Sequence record: NC_135730.1
DNA length: 64,000 nucleotides
Strand: one strand, 5' to 3'
Origin: a phage
In this document: positions 3,816-57,760 of the stretch, in pieces
Layout of the letters: each line of letters starts with the position of its first letter
How positions within the stretch are numbered: the stretch's first letter is position 1
The notes under the pieces: generated by a model
The model's database searches: none
Seen by the model: only the letters and a program-made list of their open reading frames with translations
What the model was told of the DNA's origin: nothing
Program-made: the position numbers and the translations under genes

Positions 3816-4416
3816 TATTTTAAGTTATCAGGTTGCCAGAGATCAGGAGGATTTCTAAAATGGATTTCCTCCTTTTGATATTTTACCTGCCAGGATATTT
3901 TAAAATCCTTAGAAAATCAGAAAATGGATCGAAAACTAAAATGGATTTTTCAGAGTAGGCGCGACAAGCTGAATCACTCATCCTACCGTTTGCACCATAT
4001 TCCAGACCACCATTATAGATTTCCCGCACATGCTTACATCTCGCTACTAGAACTTCCTCCACTTACCCTTGACCTTTTATAGCAATAATCCAACCACTAT
4101 CTTGAAGTTGCGGTGCAGCTTTCCAGGTACTCGATCTGTTTTTCGTTTCAAAGATTGAATTTTCTGAAAATTTTTCTCGATAAATTTCTCAGTACTCGAT
4201 CTGTTTTTCGTTTTCTGAATCGGATTTTCTGGAAATCGCTCCGGCTCTTGGCCTAAAATTTTTGGGGACGAAATCGATTTTTCGTTTTCAGAAATGGATT
4301 TTTAAAATTTCTATACGGGAATATTTTATGGGATACTGTTTTATAGGAAATTGTTACGGAGGGTAATTAGCGTGCTAATTAAATTTATTAAATGCGAGGA
4401 GTTCTCATTTAGAATT

Positions 4417-5229: not shown

Positions 5230-5628
5230 ATGAAAACCACAACCTTTAATTTTGATAATGCCGACTTTTCTTTTTCTGATGTCAAGAACTGCCGCCGTGA
5301 TCGTGGATTTTACAAGGCTTATAATCTAGTGGGCCTGGACGATGACAATAATTTGCACGAAGTAGCTGAGATCCGGTATTATGCCGCCGCCAGCGGGAAC
5401 ACTTACTACTGCGTTTTTTGGATACACGACAACAAGAACAATAAGTACGGCTATACTGGCGGCAAGGCGAGCGGTCACGGTTATGATAAAGCTAACGCAG
5501 CATTTGAGAGCGCATTAAATGCTATGGGGATCACTGCCAACGGCTGGATCTATGAAGAAGAGTTTTTGTCGGCACTTGCTAACCACCTAGGCTATAAAAA
5601 GCACATTGTAACATGTGCCCACGAATAA
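5230..5628 (+). CDS. hypothetical protein
   Basis: 132-aa track ORF; AAGAGGA RBS. Confidence 0.65.
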   Translation: MKTTTFNFDNADFSFSDVKNCRRDRGFYKAYNLVGLDDDNNLHEVAEIRYYAAASGNTYYCVFWIHDNKNNKYGYTGGKASGHGYDKANAAFESALNAMGITANGWIYEEEFLSALANHLGYKKHIVTCAHE

Positions 5629-5638
5629 AAAAAAATTA

Positions 5639-5666
5639 TTGACACGCTGCAAAATTAAAGTAAACT
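5639..5666 (+). promoter_or_regulatory. sigma70-type promoter followed by 5' leader hairpin (5677-5695)
   Basis: TTGACA, 16 nt, TAAACT; leader hairpin ggcgggaatgtttcccgcc then CA-rich leader. Confidence 0.55.
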
Positions 5667-5714
5667 AGACACAAAAGGCGGGAATGTTTCCCGCCAACAC
5701 AAAGGAAAAAGATC

Positions 5715-6110
5715 ATGAATAAGAACGTACGCCGCATCATGAACGAACTGGCAAACGATGAAAAAATTATTGATATGCATTTGGTCAACATTTGCCGCCG
5801 TTGTGTAACATATAACAACCGCGCCGCAAAAGCGCGTGAGATGAACGCAAAAGGCACCTTAAAGCCCTTTCAGGTGGTTGTAAAATCTATAGCTAATGCA
5901 GCAGGCCAGGCGCATGACCACAACAACGAGAGCACTAATATTGATCCGTCTTACGTAATGAAACGGATCCGGACTTGCAAGAATAAAGAGCAGGTGTATA
6001 ACGTCATAGATTGGCTGGACTCCATGGGCGATGGGGTTTATAATAGGTTTTCTGCAGCTATCGAGATCCAGCTTGACAGATTGGACGGGAAAGTACTGAA
6101 AACTTACTGA
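5715..6110 (+). CDS. hypothetical protein
   Basis: 131-aa track ORF. Confidence 0.65.
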   Translation: MNKNVRRIMNELANDEKIIDMHLVNICRRCVTYNNRAAKAREMNAKGTLKPFQVVVKSIANAAGQAHDHNNESTNIDPSYVMKRIRTCKNKEQVYNVIDWLDSMGDGVYNRFSAAIEIQLDRLDGKVLKTY

Positions 6111-6121
6111 GTTTATTTTTA

Positions 6122-6158
6122 GATGGCCTTGACACCAGGGCCATCAATAAAGTAAACT
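6122..6158 (+). promoter_or_regulatory. palindrome-embedded promoter, copy 1
   Basis: GATGGCC-ttgacaccag-GGCCATC inverted repeat with TTGACA in the loop; near-identical copies at 6741 and 10484. Confidence 0.55.
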
Positions 6159-6189
6159 AACCACAGTTGAGCGGAAAGGGGGCTTAAAG

Positions 6190-6309
6190 ATGAGTACTAC
6201 ACGCCAGCACACAAAGGTAACTATTATCGTTTGCATCATTGGTTACATCCTGGCGCAAATGTTGATGGGTAGCGCCAACGGTATCGCAAAATTTTTCTTA
6301 AACTTTTAA
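6190..6309 (+). CDS. small hydrophobic peptide (39 aa)
   Basis: MSTTRQHTKVTIIVCIIGYILAQMLMGSANGIAKFFLNF after AAAGGGGG RBS; below track size cutoff. Confidence 0.4.
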   Translation: MSTTRQHTKVTIIVCIIGYILAQMLMGSANGIAKFFLNF

Positions 6310-6337
6310 TTGACAAGCTAACTTAGATCAGTATACT
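6310..6337 (+). promoter_or_regulatory. sigma70-type promoter
   Basis: TTGACA, 16 nt, TATACT; leader hairpin gggaaaacttccc. Confidence 0.6.
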
Positions 6338-6387
6338 AACCACATAAACGGGAAAACTTCCCAGAACACACAAAAGGAGAAAACACC

Positions 6388-6729
6388 ATGACTACTATGA
6401 CCGCCGCAGATAAAGCTATGCAGATCGCCGCGCTGAAAAAACAGATCGCAGACCTTGAGAATAAGATCGATAACTTTGAAATCGACGAGGACAAGTACGA
6501 CGAAAACTATGATGAATGGTTAGACGAGATCTACGGCGAAATTATGATCGGAAACATTTCTTTTCTTCCGTCGCGTATCCTCAAGGAGCTAGATCCTATC
6601 GCTTACCGCTGCGGATTTAGCGACTACATCGACAGCCTGGATATTGAGGACGATGAAGAATACCAGGAATTACAGACAGAGTTGGAAGAAGCAAAAGAAG
6701 AGCTTGCGGAGCTGGAAGAAAACGAGTAA
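6388..6729 (+). CDS. hypothetical acidic coiled-coil protein
   Basis: 113-aa track ORF; AAGGAG RBS. Confidence 0.65.
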   Translation: MTTMTAADKAMQIAALKKQIADLENKIDNFEIDEDKYDENYDEWLDEIYGEIMIGNISFLPSRILKELDPIAYRCGFSDYIDSLDIEDDEEYQELQTELEEAKEELAELEENE

Positions 6730-6740
6730 GATTATTTTTA

Positions 6741-6777
6741 GATGGCCTTGACTCCAGGGCCATCAATAAAGTAAACT
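6741..6777 (+). promoter_or_regulatory. palindrome-embedded promoter, copy 2
   Basis: gatggccttgactccagggccatc. Confidence 0.55.
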
Positions 6778-6818
6778 TTATACTGTTAACACTGAACTAA
6801 TGCATAGGAGTTAAAACC

Positions 6819-7064
6819 ATGGCAGCACTAATCACCAAATATTATGCCCCTACCAACACCAAAAGCGCCCGTATCATGGTAAAAGGCTTCGGACGTAAAA
6901 AGGTTTACACCTGGGATTATGCCTTAGACACGGAAGACAACTACACCAACGCGATGACCGATTTTATTAATGATCTGAACACGCGGATCTTGACAAATTA
7001 TAAAATTACCGATATTGCCTATATAGGGGAAGGCGGGATCTGTTTTGTCGGTATCGTCAAATAA
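6819..7064 (+). CDS. hypothetical protein
   Basis: 81-aa track ORF; ATAGGAG RBS. Confidence 0.6.
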   Translation: MAALITKYYAPTNTKSARIMVKGFGRKKVYTWDYALDTEDNYTNAMTDFINDLNTRILTNYKITDIAYIGEGGICFVGIVK

Positions 7065-7139
7065 GCTGTTTTTTCGGTGGTCCTGGTAGCAGGGCCATCT
7101 ATAAAGATAGTTTATCAACACAATGAAAGGAGAAAGTAC

Positions 7140-7493
7140 ATGATCAGCGGGGCAAGTTTTATTATTGGCGCTATTGCTACGGCTTTAATTGTAAACAAGA
7201 TCCAATCTAAAAACGAAAAAGAGAGCAACGCGCTCACAGAATACCCATTTTGGGTATTCAACGACAATGAAGACTACATTATCAAGTACAAGAATGAGAA
7301 GGGCGACCAGGTAACACCGCGACCGATCCCAGCTTACAAGATGCAAGAAACACTATACCGCCTAAAGGCTGGAGGCGCAAAAATCGTAGACTTTTGGGGA
7401 TATGATTGCAAGGATCAGGAGGTTATAAAGCGCCGTATCCGGGCTATTCAGGCCAATATTGAAGTTAGCAAGGGGGGAATATATGAAGATTAA
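7140..7493 (+). CDS. hypothetical protein with N-terminal hydrophobic segment
   Basis: ATG at 7140 after AAAGGAG; track ORF 7077-7493 starts at a GTG inside the upstream palindrome variant. Confidence 0.55.
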   Translation: MISGASFIIGAIATALIVNKIQSKNEKESNALTEYPFWVFNDNEDYIIKYKNEKGDQVTPRPIPAYKMQETLYRLKAGGAKIVDFWGYDCKDQEVIKRRIRAIQANIEVSKGGIYED

Positions 7494-7680
7494 TTTTGAG
7501 AAGATTGTAAAGCGATCTCATGATTCCAAAGAGCTGCCGGAACGACGCCAGCGCAACAATAAACTGAATAAGCCAAAAAGATTTGGGAAGATCTGGCGGA
7601 ATCATTATGATCGTAAATTGCCGGGCCTACTTTTGGAACGTGAACGACAGGCGGAACGATACCGCCACAAAGGCAAATAA
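7483..7680 (+). CDS. hypothetical basic protein
   Basis: ATG at 7483 within track ORF 7459-7680; followed by a terminator. Confidence 0.5.
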   Translation: MKINFEKIVKRSHDSKELPERRQRNNKLNKPKRFGKIWRNHYDRKLPGLLLERERQAERYRHKGK

Positions 7681-7687
7681 CAACCAA

Positions 7688-7716
7688 CGCCCCGCCATTG
7701 TGCGGGGCTTTTTTAT
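7688..7716 (+). terminator. rho-independent terminator
   Basis: gccccgc-cattgt-gcggggc followed by TTTTTT. Confidence 0.7.
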
Positions 7717-7863
7717 TTCTATCCTACGAATAGCGCCCCTGGTTGGCCCTGTAAACGCCATAAAAGCCCCTACCTATGCAATCCCCTTTCTTAACCTGAA
7801 AACAGCGTCTAGGGCCGTTTTATGGCGTTAAAAATGTTATTGACAGTGATTTTATTTAAAGCT

Positions 7864-7891
7864 TGACACCTTGGAATAGTCCGGATATACT
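7864..7891 (+). promoter_or_regulatory. sigma70-type promoter (second TTGACA at 7839)
   Basis: TTGACA, 16 nt, TATACT. Confidence 0.6.
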
Positions 7892-7926
7892 GACCACATC
7901 AAAGCAAGAAGGAAGGAGTAAACGCC

Positions 7927-8187
7927 ATGCGTAAATTGAAAAATTTTGATAAGGTAGATGTAGTACTGAATAATTTTTACTACTGCAATAATAAAGCCGT
8001 TTGGTGGCGTGATAGTTCCACCGATAAAGTTAAGGCGCGCTTTCTCCAAGGGCACTGGCAAGGCCGTCCAGTGATTAAAATCATGGGGCAATTGGTAGCG
8101 TTTAAAAATTGCCGCCGTGTTGATGACGTTGAAGAGATTTTAAGCATTTTGCGCCACAATAATTTAAAAAATAGTGTTGACAAGTAA
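7927..8187 (+). CDS. hypothetical protein
   Basis: 86-aa track ORF; AAGGAG RBS. Confidence 0.65.
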   Translation: MRKLKNFDKVDVVLNNFYYCNNKAVWWRDSSTDKVKARFLQGHWQGRPVIKIMGQLVAFKNCRRVDDVEEILSILRHNNLKNSVDK

Positions 8188-8204
8188 ATCTCGATAAGTA
8201 TACT
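8177..8204 (+). promoter_or_regulatory. sigma70-type promoter with leader hairpin (about 8215-8233)
   Basis: TTGACA, 16 nt, TATACT; hairpin ggcgggaaaacttcccgcc. Confidence 0.6.
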
Positions 8205-8261
8205 TAAACACACAGGCGGGAAAACTTCCCGCCACTAACAAAGAAAATAGGAGAAAATATC

Positions 8262-8885
8262 ATGACCACCGTTAACATTACCACAGGTTACAATTTATCT
8301 TTCGACGTGCTGACCGATGAACAAAAAGAAAAAGCTATTGAAATGGTCCGCGAAAGAGAAGAACACAGCGGGGATAACTTTTTTGCAGAAAGTGTAATTG
8401 AAGACTATAAAGAACATATCTTTCCAGAGTATGGCCTTGAAGATACCAAGGTACATTGGTCCGGCTTTTGGTGCCAGGGCGACGGCGCGTCAATCAGTGC
8501 GGAAAACGTGGATTTAGAAAAATTCTTGCGTAAAGTCAAGTCTCTGACTAAATTCCGCTCAATTCGTCACTTGTTCGGCACAATGCACGATGGCGAGCTA
8601 TCCGCAAGTGTTGAGCGTGATCCATATAGCCGCTATAGTCACGAAAACACTGTAAGCGGGTACATCGATACTACATGGCTAGACCTGACAGCCAAGCAAG
8701 AAAGTAAGGTTGAAGAGCTGGAAGAGCTGATCACCGAGACGGTACGGGAGCTATCCCGCAAGGTTTATGTAGACCTGGAGGAGGCCTATCTAGAACAGTT
8801 CACTACCGAAAACCTGATCGGCCTTATTGAGGCCAATGATTGGCGGTTTGATGTGGATGAATATGGAGAGATGAGTTTTTCATAA
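8262..8885 (+). CDS. hypothetical acidic protein
   Basis: 207-aa track ORF; largest gene of the early array. Confidence 0.7.
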   Translation: MTTVNITTGYNLSFDVLTDEQKEKAIEMVREREEHSGDNFFAESVIEDYKEHIFPEYGLEDTKVHWSGFWCQGDGASISAENVDLEKFLRKVKSLTKFRSIRHLFGTMHDGELSASVERDPYSRYSHENTVSGYIDTTWLDLTAKQESKVEELEELITETVRELSRKVYVDLEEAYLEQFTTENLIGLIEANDWRFDVDEYGEMSFS

Positions 8886-8974
8886 ATAAAGTGTTGCAAT
8901 AATCTAAAAACTTGCTATATTAAAACTCAAGGGGGCAAGACGTTTGCCCCACACAAAACAAAGAGGAAAACATT

Positions 8975-9355
8975 ATGAAAAACACTACTAAAGCTATTGA
9001 CACCGTTATGTTTAACCTGGTTACCTTTCGCGAGGATATGAAAGATCTTCCACGTGAAACAGTGTGCGATCACATTGAAAACTATCGCAAACTAATCAAA
9101 GAGTTGCCTTTAAAACGTGACCAGTATGCGGCTAACGCTATGCTCAACGCCATGATCAAAAAGATGATTCAGTGTGATTTAACCCTGGCTTATGATTATG
9201 CAGGTGGTCGTTTTGCAGTATACAATCAGCCCGTGCCTGGTATGGGCACCACCGAAGAATTGCACGCGCTCAATCTAAAACAAGACGTGTGGGATAGTAT
9301 GCCCCGCGTGGTGGTGTGGGCAGAAAGCGGAAAGATTTACGGCGATAATTTTTAA
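8975..9355 (+). CDS. hypothetical protein
   Basis: 126-aa track ORF; upstream TTGCAA/TATATT promoter and leader hairpin. Confidence 0.65.
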   Translation: MKNTTKAIDTVMFNLVTFREDMKDLPRETVCDHIENYRKLIKELPLKRDQYAANAMLNAMIKKMIQCDLTLAYDYAGGRFAVYNQPVPGMGTTEELHALNLKQDVWDSMPRVVVWAESGKIYGDNF

Positions 9356-9364
9356 TCAGGTAAC

Positions 9365-9392
9365 AGGCGGCATATTTGCCGCCTTATTGTTA
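9365..9392 (+). terminator. rho-independent terminator
   Basis: ggcggca-tattt-gccgcc followed by TTATTGTT. Confidence 0.55.
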
Positions 9393-9419
9393 AACAGAAC
9401 TGCAAAAGAGGTACATAGA

Positions 9420-9791
9420 ATGGAATTTATTATTTTGGCCGTATTAGTTTCCTTGTTTAACGCCTGGATCGCTGGCAAGATGGGTAGATCCGCCTTTTTA
9501 TGGTTTATTATATCTATTTTCCTGGGGGTGGTTGCAACTATTGTACTTGTTATCCTTGCAATTGTTGACAAGGGGAATAATAGAAAGGGTAAAGTATTTT
9601 CAGACCTGTACGACGCTCAAACATTTGTCAACGCCTACTACAGCGATCTTCCAGTCTCCCTACGTTGCAGCCTTGCACAACAGGTTTTCGATGAAGCTAA
9701 AACCAGAGATCACGCCCATGAGATTTGTTTAACTGAGGCGGATCGCCTATTTGAGAGGAATAGAAAATATGTGGACCAGCCGTTTAAATAA
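9420..9791 (+). CDS. hypothetical membrane protein
   Basis: ATG at 9420 within track ORF 9387-9791; two predicted TM segments. Confidence 0.55.
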   Translation: MEFIILAVLVSLFNAWIAGKMGRSAFLWFIISIFLGVVATIVLVILAIVDKGNNRKGKVFSDLYDAQTFVNAYYSDLPVSLRCSLAQQVFDEAKTRDHAHEICLTEADRLFERNRKYVDQPFK

Positions 9792-9990
9792 TGCCACGTT
9801 AATTAATCCCTTTAGTGAAGATTTGAAGCCAGCCGCCTGGCGCGATGGATTCAATAACGAAAGCTTTATTTTCAGGCCTGATCTTAAGGAATTTTATAAC
9901 AATGGATCGAACAACGACAGAGATAATTTTTCTTGTAATGTGCGTGGTGATAATACTCCTGGGGGCCATTGCAAACCACGTCACTGCTAA
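9769..9990 (+). CDS. hypothetical Asn-rich protein (an alternative frame 9902-10027 encodes a TM peptide)
   Basis: ATG at 9769 with GAGAGGA RBS; competing overlapping frame. Confidence 0.3.
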   Translation: MWTSRLNNATLINPFSEDLKPAAWRDGFNNESFIFRPDLKEFYNNGSNNDRDNFSCNVRGDNTPGGHCKPRHC

Positions 9991-10010
9991 CAGGAGGGGA
10001 GGGGGAGACG

Positions 10011-10130
10011 ATGACAACCAAGGATAAGCCCCGCACCGATAAGGTGCGCCGTGTTATGGTATGGCTTGAGATCATCGCCCTTGAAATATTGTTAGGCGTA
10101 GGGATGTACTTTATCGCTGTAAGTAACTGA
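10011..10130 (+). CDS. small hydrophobic peptide (39 aa)
   Basis: MTTKDKPRTDKVRRVMVWLEIIALEILLGVGMYFIAVSN after AGGAGGGG RBS. Confidence 0.35.
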   Translation: MTTKDKPRTDKVRRVMVWLEIIALEILLGVGMYFIAVSN

Positions 10131-10133
10131 TAA

Positions 10134-10166
10134 CGGCCCCCAATCCCTGGGGGCTTAACTTTTTCA
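10134..10166 (+). terminator. rho-independent terminator
   Basis: gccccca/tgggggc stem followed by a T-run. Confidence 0.5.
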
Positions 10167-10270
10167 AAAATTTTTCTTCCCGGGTGTTGCAATCCGGTCC
10201 GGAATATGGATAATAACAATCAACGGGGAAACATCCCCACCAACACAAAAACCAGAAAGGAGAAACAAAA

Positions 10271-10471
10271 ATGAGCAACAATATCCGCGTTATTAACTTC
10301 AAAAAAGAAGAAAAAATTGCCGTGCTGATTGACGGTCAAGAAATCTTCAAGGGCGACTATGAAGATCATCAAACGGCGATTAGTATCACTCGCGTGATTG
10401 GTTACCATAATTTTTACCCCCAAGGCGCTGAGGCGGCGGTTAAACGAATCAAAGAGATTGTAGGCCTGTAA
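10271..10471 (+). CDS. hypothetical protein
   Basis: 66-aa track ORF; leader hairpin ggggaaacatcccc; AAAGGAG RBS. Confidence 0.6.
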   Translation: MSNNIRVINFKKEEKIAVLIDGQEIFKGDYEDHQTAISITRVIGYHNFYPQGAEAAVKRIKEIVGL

Positions 10472-10483
10472 AATTTATTTTTA

Positions 10484-10520
10484 GATGGCCTTGACTCTAG
10501 GGCCATCAATAAAGTAAATT
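10484..10520 (+). promoter_or_regulatory. palindrome-embedded promoter, copy 3
   Basis: gatggccttgactctagggccatc. Confidence 0.55.
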
Positions 10521-10556
10521 TAAACCCTGTTAAAATAATCAGTGCAAAAAGGAGTA

Positions 10557-10862
10557 ATGATCATGTTTATCCAGGCTAATAATCTTTATTTCTTTGATGG
10601 TCAGATCGTAGACGGCGTGGAGGTGGAAATCACCGGGTGCCCTGGCGGTCAGGTTATGACTTTTCGGAATAATGCCTTTGATGATTCTCATATCGTTATG
10701 AGAATGGAAGTTAGTAAGCTGGATGACAAGAAAACACTTATCGACTATTCTGTGAAAGATCATCCAGACTACCACATGATCTATGGTGATTTGTGCGTTG
10801 TTGACCGTGACAAGGTGGGCGGCATTGTGATCGCTATTGTGAACGATGTTTTCTCAAACTAA
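10557..10862 (+). CDS. hypothetical protein
   Basis: ATG at 10557 (or 10563) after AAAGGAG; within track ORF 10542-10862. Confidence 0.55.
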   Translation: MIMFIQANNLYFFDGQIVDGVEVEITGCPGGQVMTFRNNAFDDSHIVMRMEVSKLDDKKTLIDYSVKDHPDYHMIYGDLCVVDRDKVGGIVIAIVNDVFSN

Positions 10863-11261: not shown

Positions 11262-11300
11262 ACATAAAGGCTATGCGGTTGCATGGCCTTTATTATTTTG
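11262..11300 (+). terminator. rho-independent terminator
   Basis: 8-bp stem ggctatgc/gcatggcc followed by TTTATTATTTT. Confidence 0.55.
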
Positions 11301-54703: not shown

Positions 54704-55054
54704 TCAGTAGATGTTTTGTTTAATCTCTATTCCAAACTTTTTAAACGAGTCAGCTGCAAGCATGAATTTACGAGCCGCTGATGGGTTAGAAGTATGCACG
54801 AAAATCTTCACGTTGTCAACTACAGGGGGCTTACCAAATACAAATTTTTCCTCCAACATAGATAGGCAATCGTACCCTTCGAACAACTCTCCAAGGTCGT
54901 TGTCCATGTGCCACTCAGAAACGCGTCTGTAGAGCTTTCTATTATCGTTAATAAAATCTATAAACTCGGAGGAATTCTTTAGCCAAACAGCGTCTTGGAG
55001 CCCGTAATTTGACGGATCTCTCAAGTCATCCAGCCACACAATCAACTTCTTCAT
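54704..55054 (-). CDS. hypothetical protein (possible flavodoxin-like fold)
   Basis: 116-aa track ORF; IVWLDDLRDP motif. Confidence 0.5.
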   Translation of the reverse strand: MKKLIVWLDDLRDPSNYGLQDAVWLKNSSEFIDFINDNRKLYRRVSEWHMDNDLGELFEGYDCLSMLEEKFVFGKPPVVDNVKIFVHTSNPSAARKFMLAADSFKKFGIEIKQNIY

Positions 55055-55986
55055 TGCATATAGTTCTCGTTGTGGAAATAGTAATCAAGTATCTCACGGC
55101 GTTCCTGCTCCAGGAGGCAGTTCCACACATCTTCTGTGTAATTGTTACGAATGAAGTTTACCATGCCGTAAAACTCTTCGTCAACACGTTTAAAGATATC
55201 ATCATCCCAAATCTTCCAAGCTTTACCCCTCATTACGGCCTTCCGTGCCAGGTAGTATGGAGACTTGATCTTCAGCTGCAGGTCATAAGGGTAGTAAGGC
55301 TTACGGATCATATACCCTTCGCCCATTGTTTCTGCAGCTAATTCTTTTGCATAGCTGAACGGGATTTCACGCACAGTGTGAGGACGTTTTGCACCAAGGT
55401 ATTTGGCAATCCCATCTAAAGCTGCTTCTGGTAGCATTATTCCAGAATCATTATATCTGCAACCTATCAAATATGCGCCATGGTCTTCTTGAACAATATG
55501 CGGATCTGAAGGGTGACAAATTTCAAACATGAATGTCATGTTTTCATTGCCCATAACCTTCTTGATAAGATCTAAATTACCACATTGCTCTTGGATGGTT
55601 TCCTTTGCAAGGTTACAATATGGAGAATCAAGAGACCCGGTTGTTGAGAACAATAGGTCACCTTTATGAGATGATACCACACCAAGGAATCCGTTCTTTT
55701 TCTCTACCGCCGTCACAAGCTTATTGTCAGGCAGGTTGGTGGAGTTTTCTCCCAAGTTAAACACTTTTGTGAAGGGCCATGCCACAACATTCCCTTCATT
55801 ACCTACAACAATGCCTCGGCACTCCAGCAGACGAGGAGACAAATGCCATAAATTGTTGTAAAATACTTTTCTGGCATATTTATAGATCTTTAATCCAAGA
55901 TCTGGGTAATATCTGCTGGTTACAAGACCTTTGTCAACTAGGTCGTCTGCATTAAAATACTTCATCATGCGTTCCTCATTTGTCAT
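55051..55986 (-). CDS. putative RNA ligase (Rnl1/Trl1-type nucleotidyltransferase)
   Basis: motif I KKNG, motif IV EGYMIRK, motif V LKIK; separate from the KLDG DNA ligase. Confidence 0.55.
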   Translation of the reverse strand: MTNEERMMKYFNADDLVDKGLVTSRYYPDLGLKIYKYARKVFYNNLWHLSPRLLECRGIVVGNEGNVVAWPFTKVFNLGENSTNLPDNKLVTAVEKKNGFLGVVSSHKGDLLFSTTGSLDSPYCNLAKETIQEQCGNLDLIKKVMGNENMTFMFEICHPSDPHIVQEDHGAYLIGCRYNDSGIMLPEAALDGIAKYLGAKRPHTVREIPFSYAKELAAETMGEGYMIRKPYYPYDLQLKIKSPYYLARKAVMRGKAWKIWDDDIFKRVDEEFYGMVNFIRNNYTEDVWNCLLEQERREILDYYFHNENYMQ

Positions 55987-56029
55987 TTTGTCAGTCTATC
56001 CTGCCACACAAATAACCTGGTGTCAACAC

Positions 56030-57457: not shown

Positions 57458-57531
57458 ACCAGTAAAAACTTAAATATCTGTACTATAAGGATTAGTATGT
57501 TTTATGTTCGCTCTGGAACAGAGGTTAGTAA

Positions 57532-57760
57532 CTGTCCGTGATACGGACACTACTGTCCGTCACGCGGACACATCTGCCCGTAATACGGACACTAACTGTC
57601 CGTGATACGGACACATAAAGAATATAACTAAAATAACTAAATAATAAAAATAAAAGATCTAGTACTTATGGTACTAAGTACATATACTTAACTTATGTAG
57701 AATATACTAGATCCTAAGTACCATGTTTTAAAATTATTACTTACTATAGGTAGTGTCGGC
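57532..57760. promoter_or_regulatory. origin-like element: four palindromic iterons plus AT-rich tract
   Basis: CTGTCCGTgATACGGACAc repeated at about 57532, 57553, 57574, 57596 (21-22 bp period), then about 150 bp of AT-rich DNA. Confidence 0.55.

Follow-up and report, generated by a model that had tools for sequence, protein, structure and literature searches.

Repeated intercistronic hairpins in the early region of an rV5-like coliphage resemble the early RNase III sites of T7

The DNA analyzed here is a stretch of 64,000 nucleotides from a phage (sequence record NC_135730.1; one strand, 5′ to 3′), which is called the window below and is 94-97% identical to rV5-like coliphages of the genus Vequintavirus. 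The subject of this study is a short hairpin-forming element that occurs four times between positions 6110 and 10521 of the window. This region is a long early transcription unit composed of small genes, mostly without a Pfam match. All copies of the element begin at the stop codon of one open reading frame (ORF) and end 30-45 nt ahead of the next ATG. Copy 1 lies between the ORFs 5715-6110 and 6190-6309. Copy 2 follows the ORF 6388-6729 and precedes the ORF 6819-7064, which is followed in turn by copy 4 and the ORF 7140-7493. Copy 3 is located between the ORFs 10271-10471 and 10563-10862. Every copy is inside an operon, with further cistrons on its 3′ side before the operon ends at a canonical terminator; a terminator scan placed these terminators at 7689 and 11264. 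On the upstream side, there are strong sigma-70 promoters at 5639 and 6310.

A 24-nt core sequence, GATGGCCTTGACNCCAGGGCCATC, is present on the plus strand at 6122-6145 and 6741-6764 without a mismatch and at 10484-10507 with one mismatch, while 100 dinucleotide shuffles contained no match to it. A repeat finder gave a repeat unit of 49 nt (6110-6158, 6729-6777, and 10472-10520; mutually 92-96% identical) and a fourth copy at 7064-7112, which is 69% identical. An earlier note, made from the letters of this DNA, had pointed to the three near-identical copies, and its coordinates were right within a few bases. The note had regarded the fourth copy as degenerate; its sequence is indeed diverged, but its structure is intact and is the most stable of the four. 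BLAST matches to the element were restricted to Vequintavirus records, in three places per genome, or four if the diverged copy scores. A covariance model constructed from the phage copies (model R1) was run over the window with the filters off and over the whole rV5 genome with default filters. Exactly four members were found in both, all on the coding strand.

I looked for the element outside these records as well. Rfam has no family matching the elements, and no description of the element for Vequintavirus was found in the literature searched. An IMG/VR search with the neighboring 81-aa protein gave two loci only, and a metagenome scan with GGGCCATCNATAAAG (14 specified bases) gave 120 random matches, none of which contained the element. 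A 207-aa neighbor protein was tried as a route to other genera and was dropped, since it led to jumbo phages (121Q, phAPEC6, and K64-1) and not to other Vequintavirinae. A simple scan of the window with a threshold of minimum free energy (MFE) was too unspecific as a finder.

The plus strand was folded as RNA, using 61 nt per copy, and z-scores were calculated against shuffles. All four copies adopt a common fold: a 10-bp upper stem capped by a tetraloop stands on a lower stem of 10-13 bp, and the two stems are separated by an internal loop with 2 nt in its 5′ strand and 3 nt in its 3′ strand. The MFE values range from -21.5 to -28.2 kcal/mol and the z-scores from -5.1 to -7.5, and no shuffle folds as well. 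Copy 1 (6110..6158, plus strand) starts with the last base of the TGA stop codon of the ORF 5715-6110. Its lower stem (6110-6119/6149-6158) and upper stem (6122-6131/6136-6145) are separated by the internal loop (6120-6121 and 6146-6148), and the tetraloop is ACAC (6132-6135); it folds at -25.1 kcal/mol (z -7.5) and scores 79.3 bits with model R1. Copy 2 (6729..6777, plus strand) starts at the TAA stop codon of the ORF 6388-6729 and has one A × A mismatch in its lower stem (6729-6738/6768-6777), an upper stem at 6741-6750/6755-6764, and the loop ACTC at 6751-6754 (-21.5 kcal/mol, z -5.1; 77.7 bits). Copy 3 (10471..10521, plus strand) starts at the TAA stop codon of the ORF 10271-10471, with a lower stem of 11 bp (10471-10481/10511-10521) and an upper stem (10484-10493/10498-10507) whose loop ACTC (10494-10497) is closed by a G.U pair (-21.5 kcal/mol, z -5.6; 74.1 bits). 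The diverged copy 4 (7061..7115, plus strand) has a lower stem of 13 bp (7061-7073/7103-7115) spanning the TAA stop codon of the ORF 6819-7064, the internal loop UC/UAU, an upper stem with two G.U pairs (7076-7085/7090-7099), and the loop GTAG (7086-7089). It contains no TTGAC and is the most stable copy (-28.2 kcal/mol, z -7.05; 78.2 bits).

The perfect 7-bp inverted repeat GATGGCC/GGCCATC of the earlier note is part of the upper stem. The note had placed a -35 box in the loop of this repeat. The upper stem consists of these 7 bp plus three further pairs, U.G, U-A, and G-C; thus, the TTG of the supposed box is paired, and the loop is ACNC only. Similarly, the AT-rich flanks, which had been read as an UP element and a -10 box, pair with each other (T-rich 5′ flank with A-rich 3′ flank) to form the lower stem, though a -10-like TAAAYT does exist in copies 1-3.

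The fold is specific to one strand. The minus strand has MFE values of only -10 to -17 kcal/mol (z -1.5 to -2.2), and model R1 gives 74-79 bits on the plus strand versus 28-38 bits on the minus strand. Each wobble pair is a G.U of the plus strand and would turn into A.C on the opposite strand, which explains the poor folding of the latter. This asymmetry and the restriction of the copies to the coding strand indicate that the structure is formed by a single-stranded nucleic acid in the sense of the genes, most simply the mRNA.

Is the pairing conserved among relatives? I aligned 41 distinct sequences from 20 genomes, including the window, rV5, HdK5, Murica, Gotham, MiataMamis, and two IMG/VR contigs; the pairing was also evaluated in a first set of 22. 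In the core structure of 20 pairs, 98.5% of the pair cells are standard pairs, compared with 35-56% in controls with the 3′ partners shifted by 1-3 columns. Four pairs of the lower stem are altered on both sides (GC/AU/GU; UA/CG; UA/GU/AU/GC; and AU/UA). In the upper stem, 100% of the cells are paired, and variation at four pairs is confined to G.U. The pattern is consistent between the paralogues and within the copy-4 orthologues, and copy 4 has lost TTGAC while retaining every pair. A natural control is provided by a hybrid of copies 2 and 4 in phage 241Ecol014PP, which has mismatches at exactly two covarying pairs.

In its classical form, the early RNase III signal of T7 has two stems of about 10 bp with a small asymmetric loop between them and is located between early cistrons. 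Five T7 sites (R0.3, R0.5, R1, R1.1, and R1.3) were folded for comparison. In R0.3, R1, and R1.1, a lower stem is followed by a 2 × 3 internal loop and an upper stem of 9-10 bp with a tetraloop. On its 3′ side, the internal loop reads UAU or AAU in these T7 sites, AAU in copies 1-3, and UAU in copy 4. When model R1 was run over the first 7 kb of T7, the three best matches were R0.3, R1, and R1.1, all in full length and weak (10.6-13.9 bits). Conversely, a covariance model made from these five T7 early sites only (model R2) was applied to both strands of the 64-kb window with the filters off. Its top four matches are the four copies, in full length and ungapped, at 24.0-27.5 bits with E values of 1e-4 to 1e-3 (copy 1, 27.5 bits, E 1e-4; copy 2, 24.0 bits; copy 3, 26.2 bits; copy 4, 25.4 bits), and the next match has 15.7 bits. 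In rV5, the four copies are again the top four. Model R2 found nothing in the rV5 late region, nor in 530 kb of unrelated metagenomic DNA, for which the loci of the metagenome scan were reused as a control. The R1.1 sequence used agrees with the numbered pairs and the GCAA tetraloop of PMC1540722.

The likeness extends to the position of the sites between cistrons of early operons transcribed by the host polymerase, to the U.G and U-A pairs beside the loop-closing pair in copies 1-3, and to the lower stem of about 10 bp. Moreover, the ORF 7483-7680 (65 aa), in the same operon as copies 2 and 4, matches the Pfam family PF08200 (Phage_1_1, T7 gene 1.1 protein) with an E value of 3.8e-10, above the curated cut-off. 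This T7 gene 1.1 homologue is suggestive of exchange with T7-like early regions, although it proves nothing. In contrast, the phage copies have no detectable similarity to the T7 sites in primary sequence, their lower stem is almost pure A/U and begins at a stop codon, and copies 1-3 overlap a sigma-70 promoter-like site.

The copies agree in outline with the published requirements of E. coli RNase III. The enzyme recognizes a helix of about two turns, which may be stacked from shorter helices (PMC1540722). The copies offer at least 20 bp on the transcribed strand, as 10 bp plus 10-13 bp across the small internal loop. An internal loop confines cleavage to one strand and leaves a protective 3′ hairpin (PMC1540722), and the loop is asymmetric (2 nt × 3 nt) in all four copies. 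The distance from the cut to the tetraloop is 11 bp (PMC1540722); the upper stem of 10 bp and the first loop position give the same distance if the cut is where it is predicted. A distal box of U-A and U.G pairs lies beside the loop-closing pair in known substrates (PMC1540722), and the corresponding pairs are U.G, U-A, and G-C in copies 1-3, with C-G replacing U.G in copy 4. In the proximal box of the tested T7 substrate, G-C and C-G are absent from position 2, while G-C is preferred at position 1 and A-U at position 3, and position 4 has a preferred pair as well (PMC1540722). By my own mapping of that numbering, position 2 is the allowed A-U in copies 1-3 and G.U in copy 4.

Several observations weigh against cleavage of the copies by RNase III. 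The cleavage positions used for T7 R0.3, R0.5, R1, R1.1, and R1.3 follow Dunn and Studier (1983) and are unannotated in the T7 record. Model R2 scores T7's own sites at 47-67 bits, far above the 24-28 bits of the phage copies, and a sequence-only model from the same T7 alignment found none of the copies. Thus, what the copies have in common with the T7 sites is an architecture, which would be found in any long interrupted hairpin of such a size. In the distal box of copy 4, C-G takes the place of the required U.G. Proximal positions 1 and 3 are U-A and G-C and not the preferred G-C and A-U; next to the internal loop there is a G-C pair, and U-A forms the third pair, whereas the tested T7 substrate prefers A-U and G-C at these places (PMC1540722). 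I infer cleavage from the shape of the hairpin alone, and the literature searched contained nothing linking RNase III to Vequintavirus or rV5-like phages. The sequences compared are close relatives (86-99% identical), so that few independent substitutions lie behind the covariation counts. Finally, copy 1 of Gotham (6510-6545 of its locus, L009) lacks 5 nt (GGGCC) from the 3′ arm of its upper stem. This deletion, which may be a natural knock-out or else a sequencing error, abolishes the hairpin and cuts the spacer between the -35 and -10 boxes to 13 bp. Since Gotham tolerates the destroyed copy 1, a single copy seems to be dispensable.

Even so, I lean with moderate confidence toward the view that the elements are intercistronic processing and stabilizing hairpins of the RNase III type, that copies 1-3 are probably sigma-70 promoters in addition, and that the repeats act as joints for the recombination of cassettes. 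Homology to the T7 sites is not claimed; the copies could equally well have converged on what the host enzyme requires. In this scheme, the host RNA polymerase would start at the upstream sigma-70 promoters (for example 5639 and 6310) and read through each element. The transcript would fold into a hairpin of about 50 nt, with the A/U-rich lower stem from the stop codon onward and the G/C-rich upper stem above it. Host RNase III would then make a single cut past the AAU or UAU that forms the 3′ strand of the internal loop; in copy 1, alignment to R1.1 predicts a cut between 6148 and 6149. The expected ends would be rnc-dependent 3′ ends at ...GGCCAUCAAU and 5′-monophosphate ends at AAAGUAAA. 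The upstream cistron would keep a protective 3′ hairpin, and the downstream cistron would be freed as its own mRNA. The nearly identical copies would also serve as recombination joints, between which small cassettes are gained or lost.

The promoter-like site deserves separate consideration. In copy 1, it lies at 6129..6158 on the plus strand and consists of TTGACA (6129-6134), a spacer of 18 bp, and TAAACT (6153-6158), followed by AACCACA, with 10 of 12 positions matching. The counterparts in copy 2 (6748-6777) and copy 3 (10491-10520) match at 9 of 12 positions each; all three have TTGACA or TTGACT, an 18-bp spacer, and TAAACT or TAAATT. Among copies of classes 1-3 (n = 49), the A and C of the loop that complete TTGAC are invariant, while the third loop base is any of the four and the fourth has two values. 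The 3′ strand AAAGTAAAYT is also invariant, while its 5′ partners (columns 10 and 11) vary and occasionally leave a mismatch. The start region of copy 1, TAAACT-AACCACA, may be compared with TAAACT-AGACACA at 5639 and TATACT-AACCACA at 6310, two accepted early promoters that correspond to rV5 P194 and P192. The invariance of the loop bases and of AAAGTAAAYT and the shared start region make it likely that copies 1-3 contain a moderate sigma-70 promoter, as predicted from the sequence. Thus, the promoter proposed in the earlier note retains real resemblance (9-10/12) and some comparative support in copies 1-3. It does not hold for copy 4, where CTGGTA replaces the -35 box, and matches of this quality are common by chance in the region (71 found versus 47 expected). 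The rV5 genome paper lists 33 promoters and 20 terminators, none of them at the element sites. Transcripts from the promoter of copies 1-3 would lack the hairpin, since their start would be immediately on its 3′ side.

A more ambitious form of this idea, which I put forward only tentatively, is that the module of 49 bp is read twice: as RNA, it would be an RNase III site of the T7 type, and as DNA, it would be a moderate sigma-70 promoter (TTGACN, 18 bp, TAAAYT) in copies 1-3. The -35 box would lie in the upper stem and loop and the -10 box in the 3′ strand of the lower stem. Each downstream cistron would thus be served by two kinds of mRNA, processed and newly started, whose 5′ ends nearly coincide. 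In addition, the module would be a portable recombination joint for early-gene cassettes, and it would be convergent with the T7 sites and with the PeSLs of T4-like phages described below, in a third phage lineage.

Could the hairpins be transcription terminators? Like Rho-independent terminators, they are stable G/C-rich hairpins directly past a stop codon. Unlike them, they are followed by further genes of the same operon and have no U-tract: AAUAAAGUAAA or UAUAAAGAUAG follows the hairpin, and neither strand has a run of U. The flanks are U-rich on the 5′ side and A-rich on the 3′ side on both strands, which is the reverse of a terminator. A Rho-independent terminator was thus rejected, and the missing U-tract makes terminator or attenuator activity doubtful. 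The terminator scan did not list the four sites, while it detected ordinary terminators nearby. One of them, at 7689..7718 on the plus strand (GCCCCGC..GCGGGGC, then TTTTTTATTT), ends the operon carrying copies 2 and 4, and HdK5 and Murica have a terminator annotated at the matching position; ordinary terminators are therefore in use elsewhere in the phage. The annotation of the four sites is conflicting. Copies 4 and 3 are annotated as 45-bp terminators in Murica (GenBank KT001917), and copies 2 and 3 as predicted promoters in Gotham, while rV5 and HdK5 have no annotation there.

As a side observation, the terminator t177 of rV5, a 13-bp hairpin (AAAGGCTATGC..GCATGGCCTTTAT, then TATTTT) at 11264-11293 of the window (minus strand of the rV5 locus L012, 10375-10434), is the next-best match of model R2 after the four copies (15.7 bits in the window and 18.9 bits, in full length, in rV5). 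Its sequence resembles the T7 upper stem, and it could be a terminator and a processing site at once.

The genes between the copies are variable among the relatives. The cassette between copies 1 and 2 (6159..6728, plus strand) contains a 39-aa ORF (6190-6309), the strong promoter at 6310-6337, and a 113-aa ORF (6388-6729), and 114 of about 121 records contain it. ECP32, phiWec189, magaca, and the IMG/VR contig L007 lack 619 bp between these copies and have one hybrid element there, whose 5′ flank is that of copy 1 and whose 3′ flank is that of copy 2. The cassette between copies 2 and 4 (6778..7063, plus strand) contains the 81-aa ORF 6819-7064. In 241Ecol014PP, 335 bp with this ORF are missing, and a single hybrid of copies 2 and 4 remains, whose crossover lies within the shared stretch CAGGGCCATC-ATAAAG. 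Owing to their length of about 49 bp and their near identity, the copies act as joints for homologous recombination that adds or removes small cassettes, though the direction of the indels (gain or loss) is inferential. Separately, the evolved variant rV5_ev146 has lost copies 1 and 3 (5473-5488 and after 6900 in its locus L002), with an overlap of about 16 bp at one junction. It was considered as a case of repeat-mediated deletion and rejected, since its deletion ends away from the elements.

Such cassette indels are known from the PeSLs (promoter-early stem-loops) of T4-like phages, modules of a promoter and a stem-loop at which close relatives differ by cassettes with the crossover inside the module (PMC2839356 and PMC4122927). 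Promoter and terminator activities have been measured for PeSLs (PMC2839356 and PMC4122927). The present element shares with the PeSLs of RB49/phi1, PST, and nt-1 a repeated intergenic module that extends from a stop codon to the next gene and combines a sigma-70-type promoter with a stem-loop, and both are concentrated among small ORFan early genes. Thus, the element may be a cassette of the PeSL type, in which an early sigma-70 promoter and an attenuating or terminating stem-loop work without RNase III and the repetition serves the shuffling of ORFans. The site between stop codon and next ATG, the surrounding small genes mostly without a Pfam match, the two kinds of indel with junctions inside the element, and the terminator labels given to copies 3 and 4 by the Murica annotators all fit this possibility and the published PeSLs (PMC2839356 and PMC4122927). 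I nevertheless consider it unlikely. Neither strand has a U-tract, and the sites were not flagged by a scan that found canonical terminators in the region. An attenuator does not need the A/U lower stem, yet this stem has been kept through two-sided changes. Copy 4 has no usable -35 box, and the phage is a Vequintavirus and not T4-like. There are other differences. Each genome has only four copies, while PeSLs are numerous. Here the -35 box is enclosed by the stem-loop and the -10 box is part of the lower stem, whereas the PeSL stem-loop lies between the two boxes or over the -10 box. The hairpin is long, interrupted, and similar to a T7 RNase III site rather than a G/C-tract terminator. The element belongs in any case to known kinds, RNase III processing signals and PeSL-like cassettes, and is not a new kind.

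The structural evidence would apply equally to an RNA hairpin with another role, such as a barrier to 3′ exonucleases or a binding site for a phage or host RNA-binding protein, which is not cleaved by RNase III. The first two loop bases are invariant within each copy class, which could reflect recognition by a protein, and the proximal-box pairs are not those preferred by RNase III (PMC1540722). However, a G/C-rich stem of 10 bp suffices against exonucleases, so that the conserved lower stem and the 2 × 3 loop would be left unexplained, and the register-exact match to the T7 RNase III sites would be a coincidence. This role is thus improbable compared with a processing signal of the RNase III type.

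The earlier note had interpreted the element as a sigma-70 promoter whose -35 box lies within a DNA palindrome, the operator of a dimeric phage or host regulator. The perfect 7-bp inverted repeat around TTGAC in three copies, as in operators overlapping a -35 box, and the invariance of TTGAC in 49 copies speak for such an operator. What is conserved is, however, RNA pairing on one strand and not DNA symmetry. The interrupted helix of 20-23 bp is kept by G.U wobbles and two-sided changes on the plus strand only, while the opposite strand receives A.C mismatches, with a fold z-score of about -2 and a halved model score. Copy 4 keeps the helix without the half-site: its left arm differs at 3 of 10 positions, always with pairing preserved, and TTGAC is lost. 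The centers of the half-sites are 17 bp apart, about 1.6 helical turns, and therefore they face different sides of the DNA. Moreover, the 3-4 sites in 138 kb are all on the coding strand, within 4.4 kb, and tied to stop codons. No candidate regulator was identified, and a Pfam scan of the nine flanking ORFs gave no match to a DNA-binding family. An operator at these sites is thus very improbable. An array that does resemble a genuine iteron or operator array for a dimeric DNA-binding protein exists elsewhere in the window, at 57529-57614, where four tandem units of about 21 nt (TAACTGTCCGTGATACGGACAC) each contain the inverted repeat GTCCGT-N4-ACGGAC. By coordinate mapping, it occupies a non-coding gap beside the homologue of rV5 ORF79 (GntR-like, "replication initiation protein").

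The earlier note had also connected the element with a related core near 56020. The 11-mer TTGACACCAGG does occur upstream of the RNA ligase gene (Pfam RNA_lig_T4_1; 55051-55986, minus strand); it is at 56017-56027, also on the minus strand, which codes for the ligase. It is not a member of this family: it has no surrounding inverted repeat and no match to model R1 or R2. The window has 89 TTGACA sites, and the chance of a second one with CCAGG is about 0.09; thus, the 11-mer is probably a chance occurrence. It may be the -35 box of a ligase promoter.

The idea of a DNA-level element, a cruciform or single-stranded DNA hairpin for recombination or replication with an incidental RNA fold, would suit the indel junctions inside the element and the ability of single-stranded DNA to form G.T pairs, but it is hardly credible, since a cruciform needs both strands paired while the minus strand has up to five A.C mismatches, all copies are gene-oriented, begin at stop codons, and lie within operons, and plain homologous recombination between 49-bp direct repeats accounts for the indels.

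Other features were observed near the elements and in the records compared. Three near-identical leader hairpins (GGCGGGAA-NNN-TTCCCGCC or GGGAAAACTTCCC) lie at 5677-5695, 6349-6363, and 8215-8233, about 15-20 nt past the -10 box of three strong early promoters (5639, 6310, and 8177), and they may be 5′ stabilizers of early mRNAs. At 4120-4310, three tandem direct repeats of about 52 nt, with spacings of 65 and 74 nt and a hairpin in each, occupy a stretch without annotated genes in related phages. Seventeen GenBank records (MG0656xx) are titled "Campylobacter phage" with the host C. jejuni, and their sequence matches this E. coli rV5-like phage with 95-97% identity over 5.5 kb; their host label seems doubtful.

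Phages of the rV5 type have been isolated widely and serve as candidates in therapy and biocontrol, yet little has been learned about their early gene expression. The public records contradict one another at the four sites, where terminators, promoters, or nothing have been annotated. If the elements are RNase III signals, early expression in the genus would depend on a host RNase, as in T7, and the annotation of operons, promoters, and terminators would change across about 120 genomes. If the overlap of promoter and processing site and the role as a recombination joint are true, the PeSL idea would be extended beyond the T4-like phages, and the element would exemplify a sequence that is constrained as DNA and as RNA at the same time.

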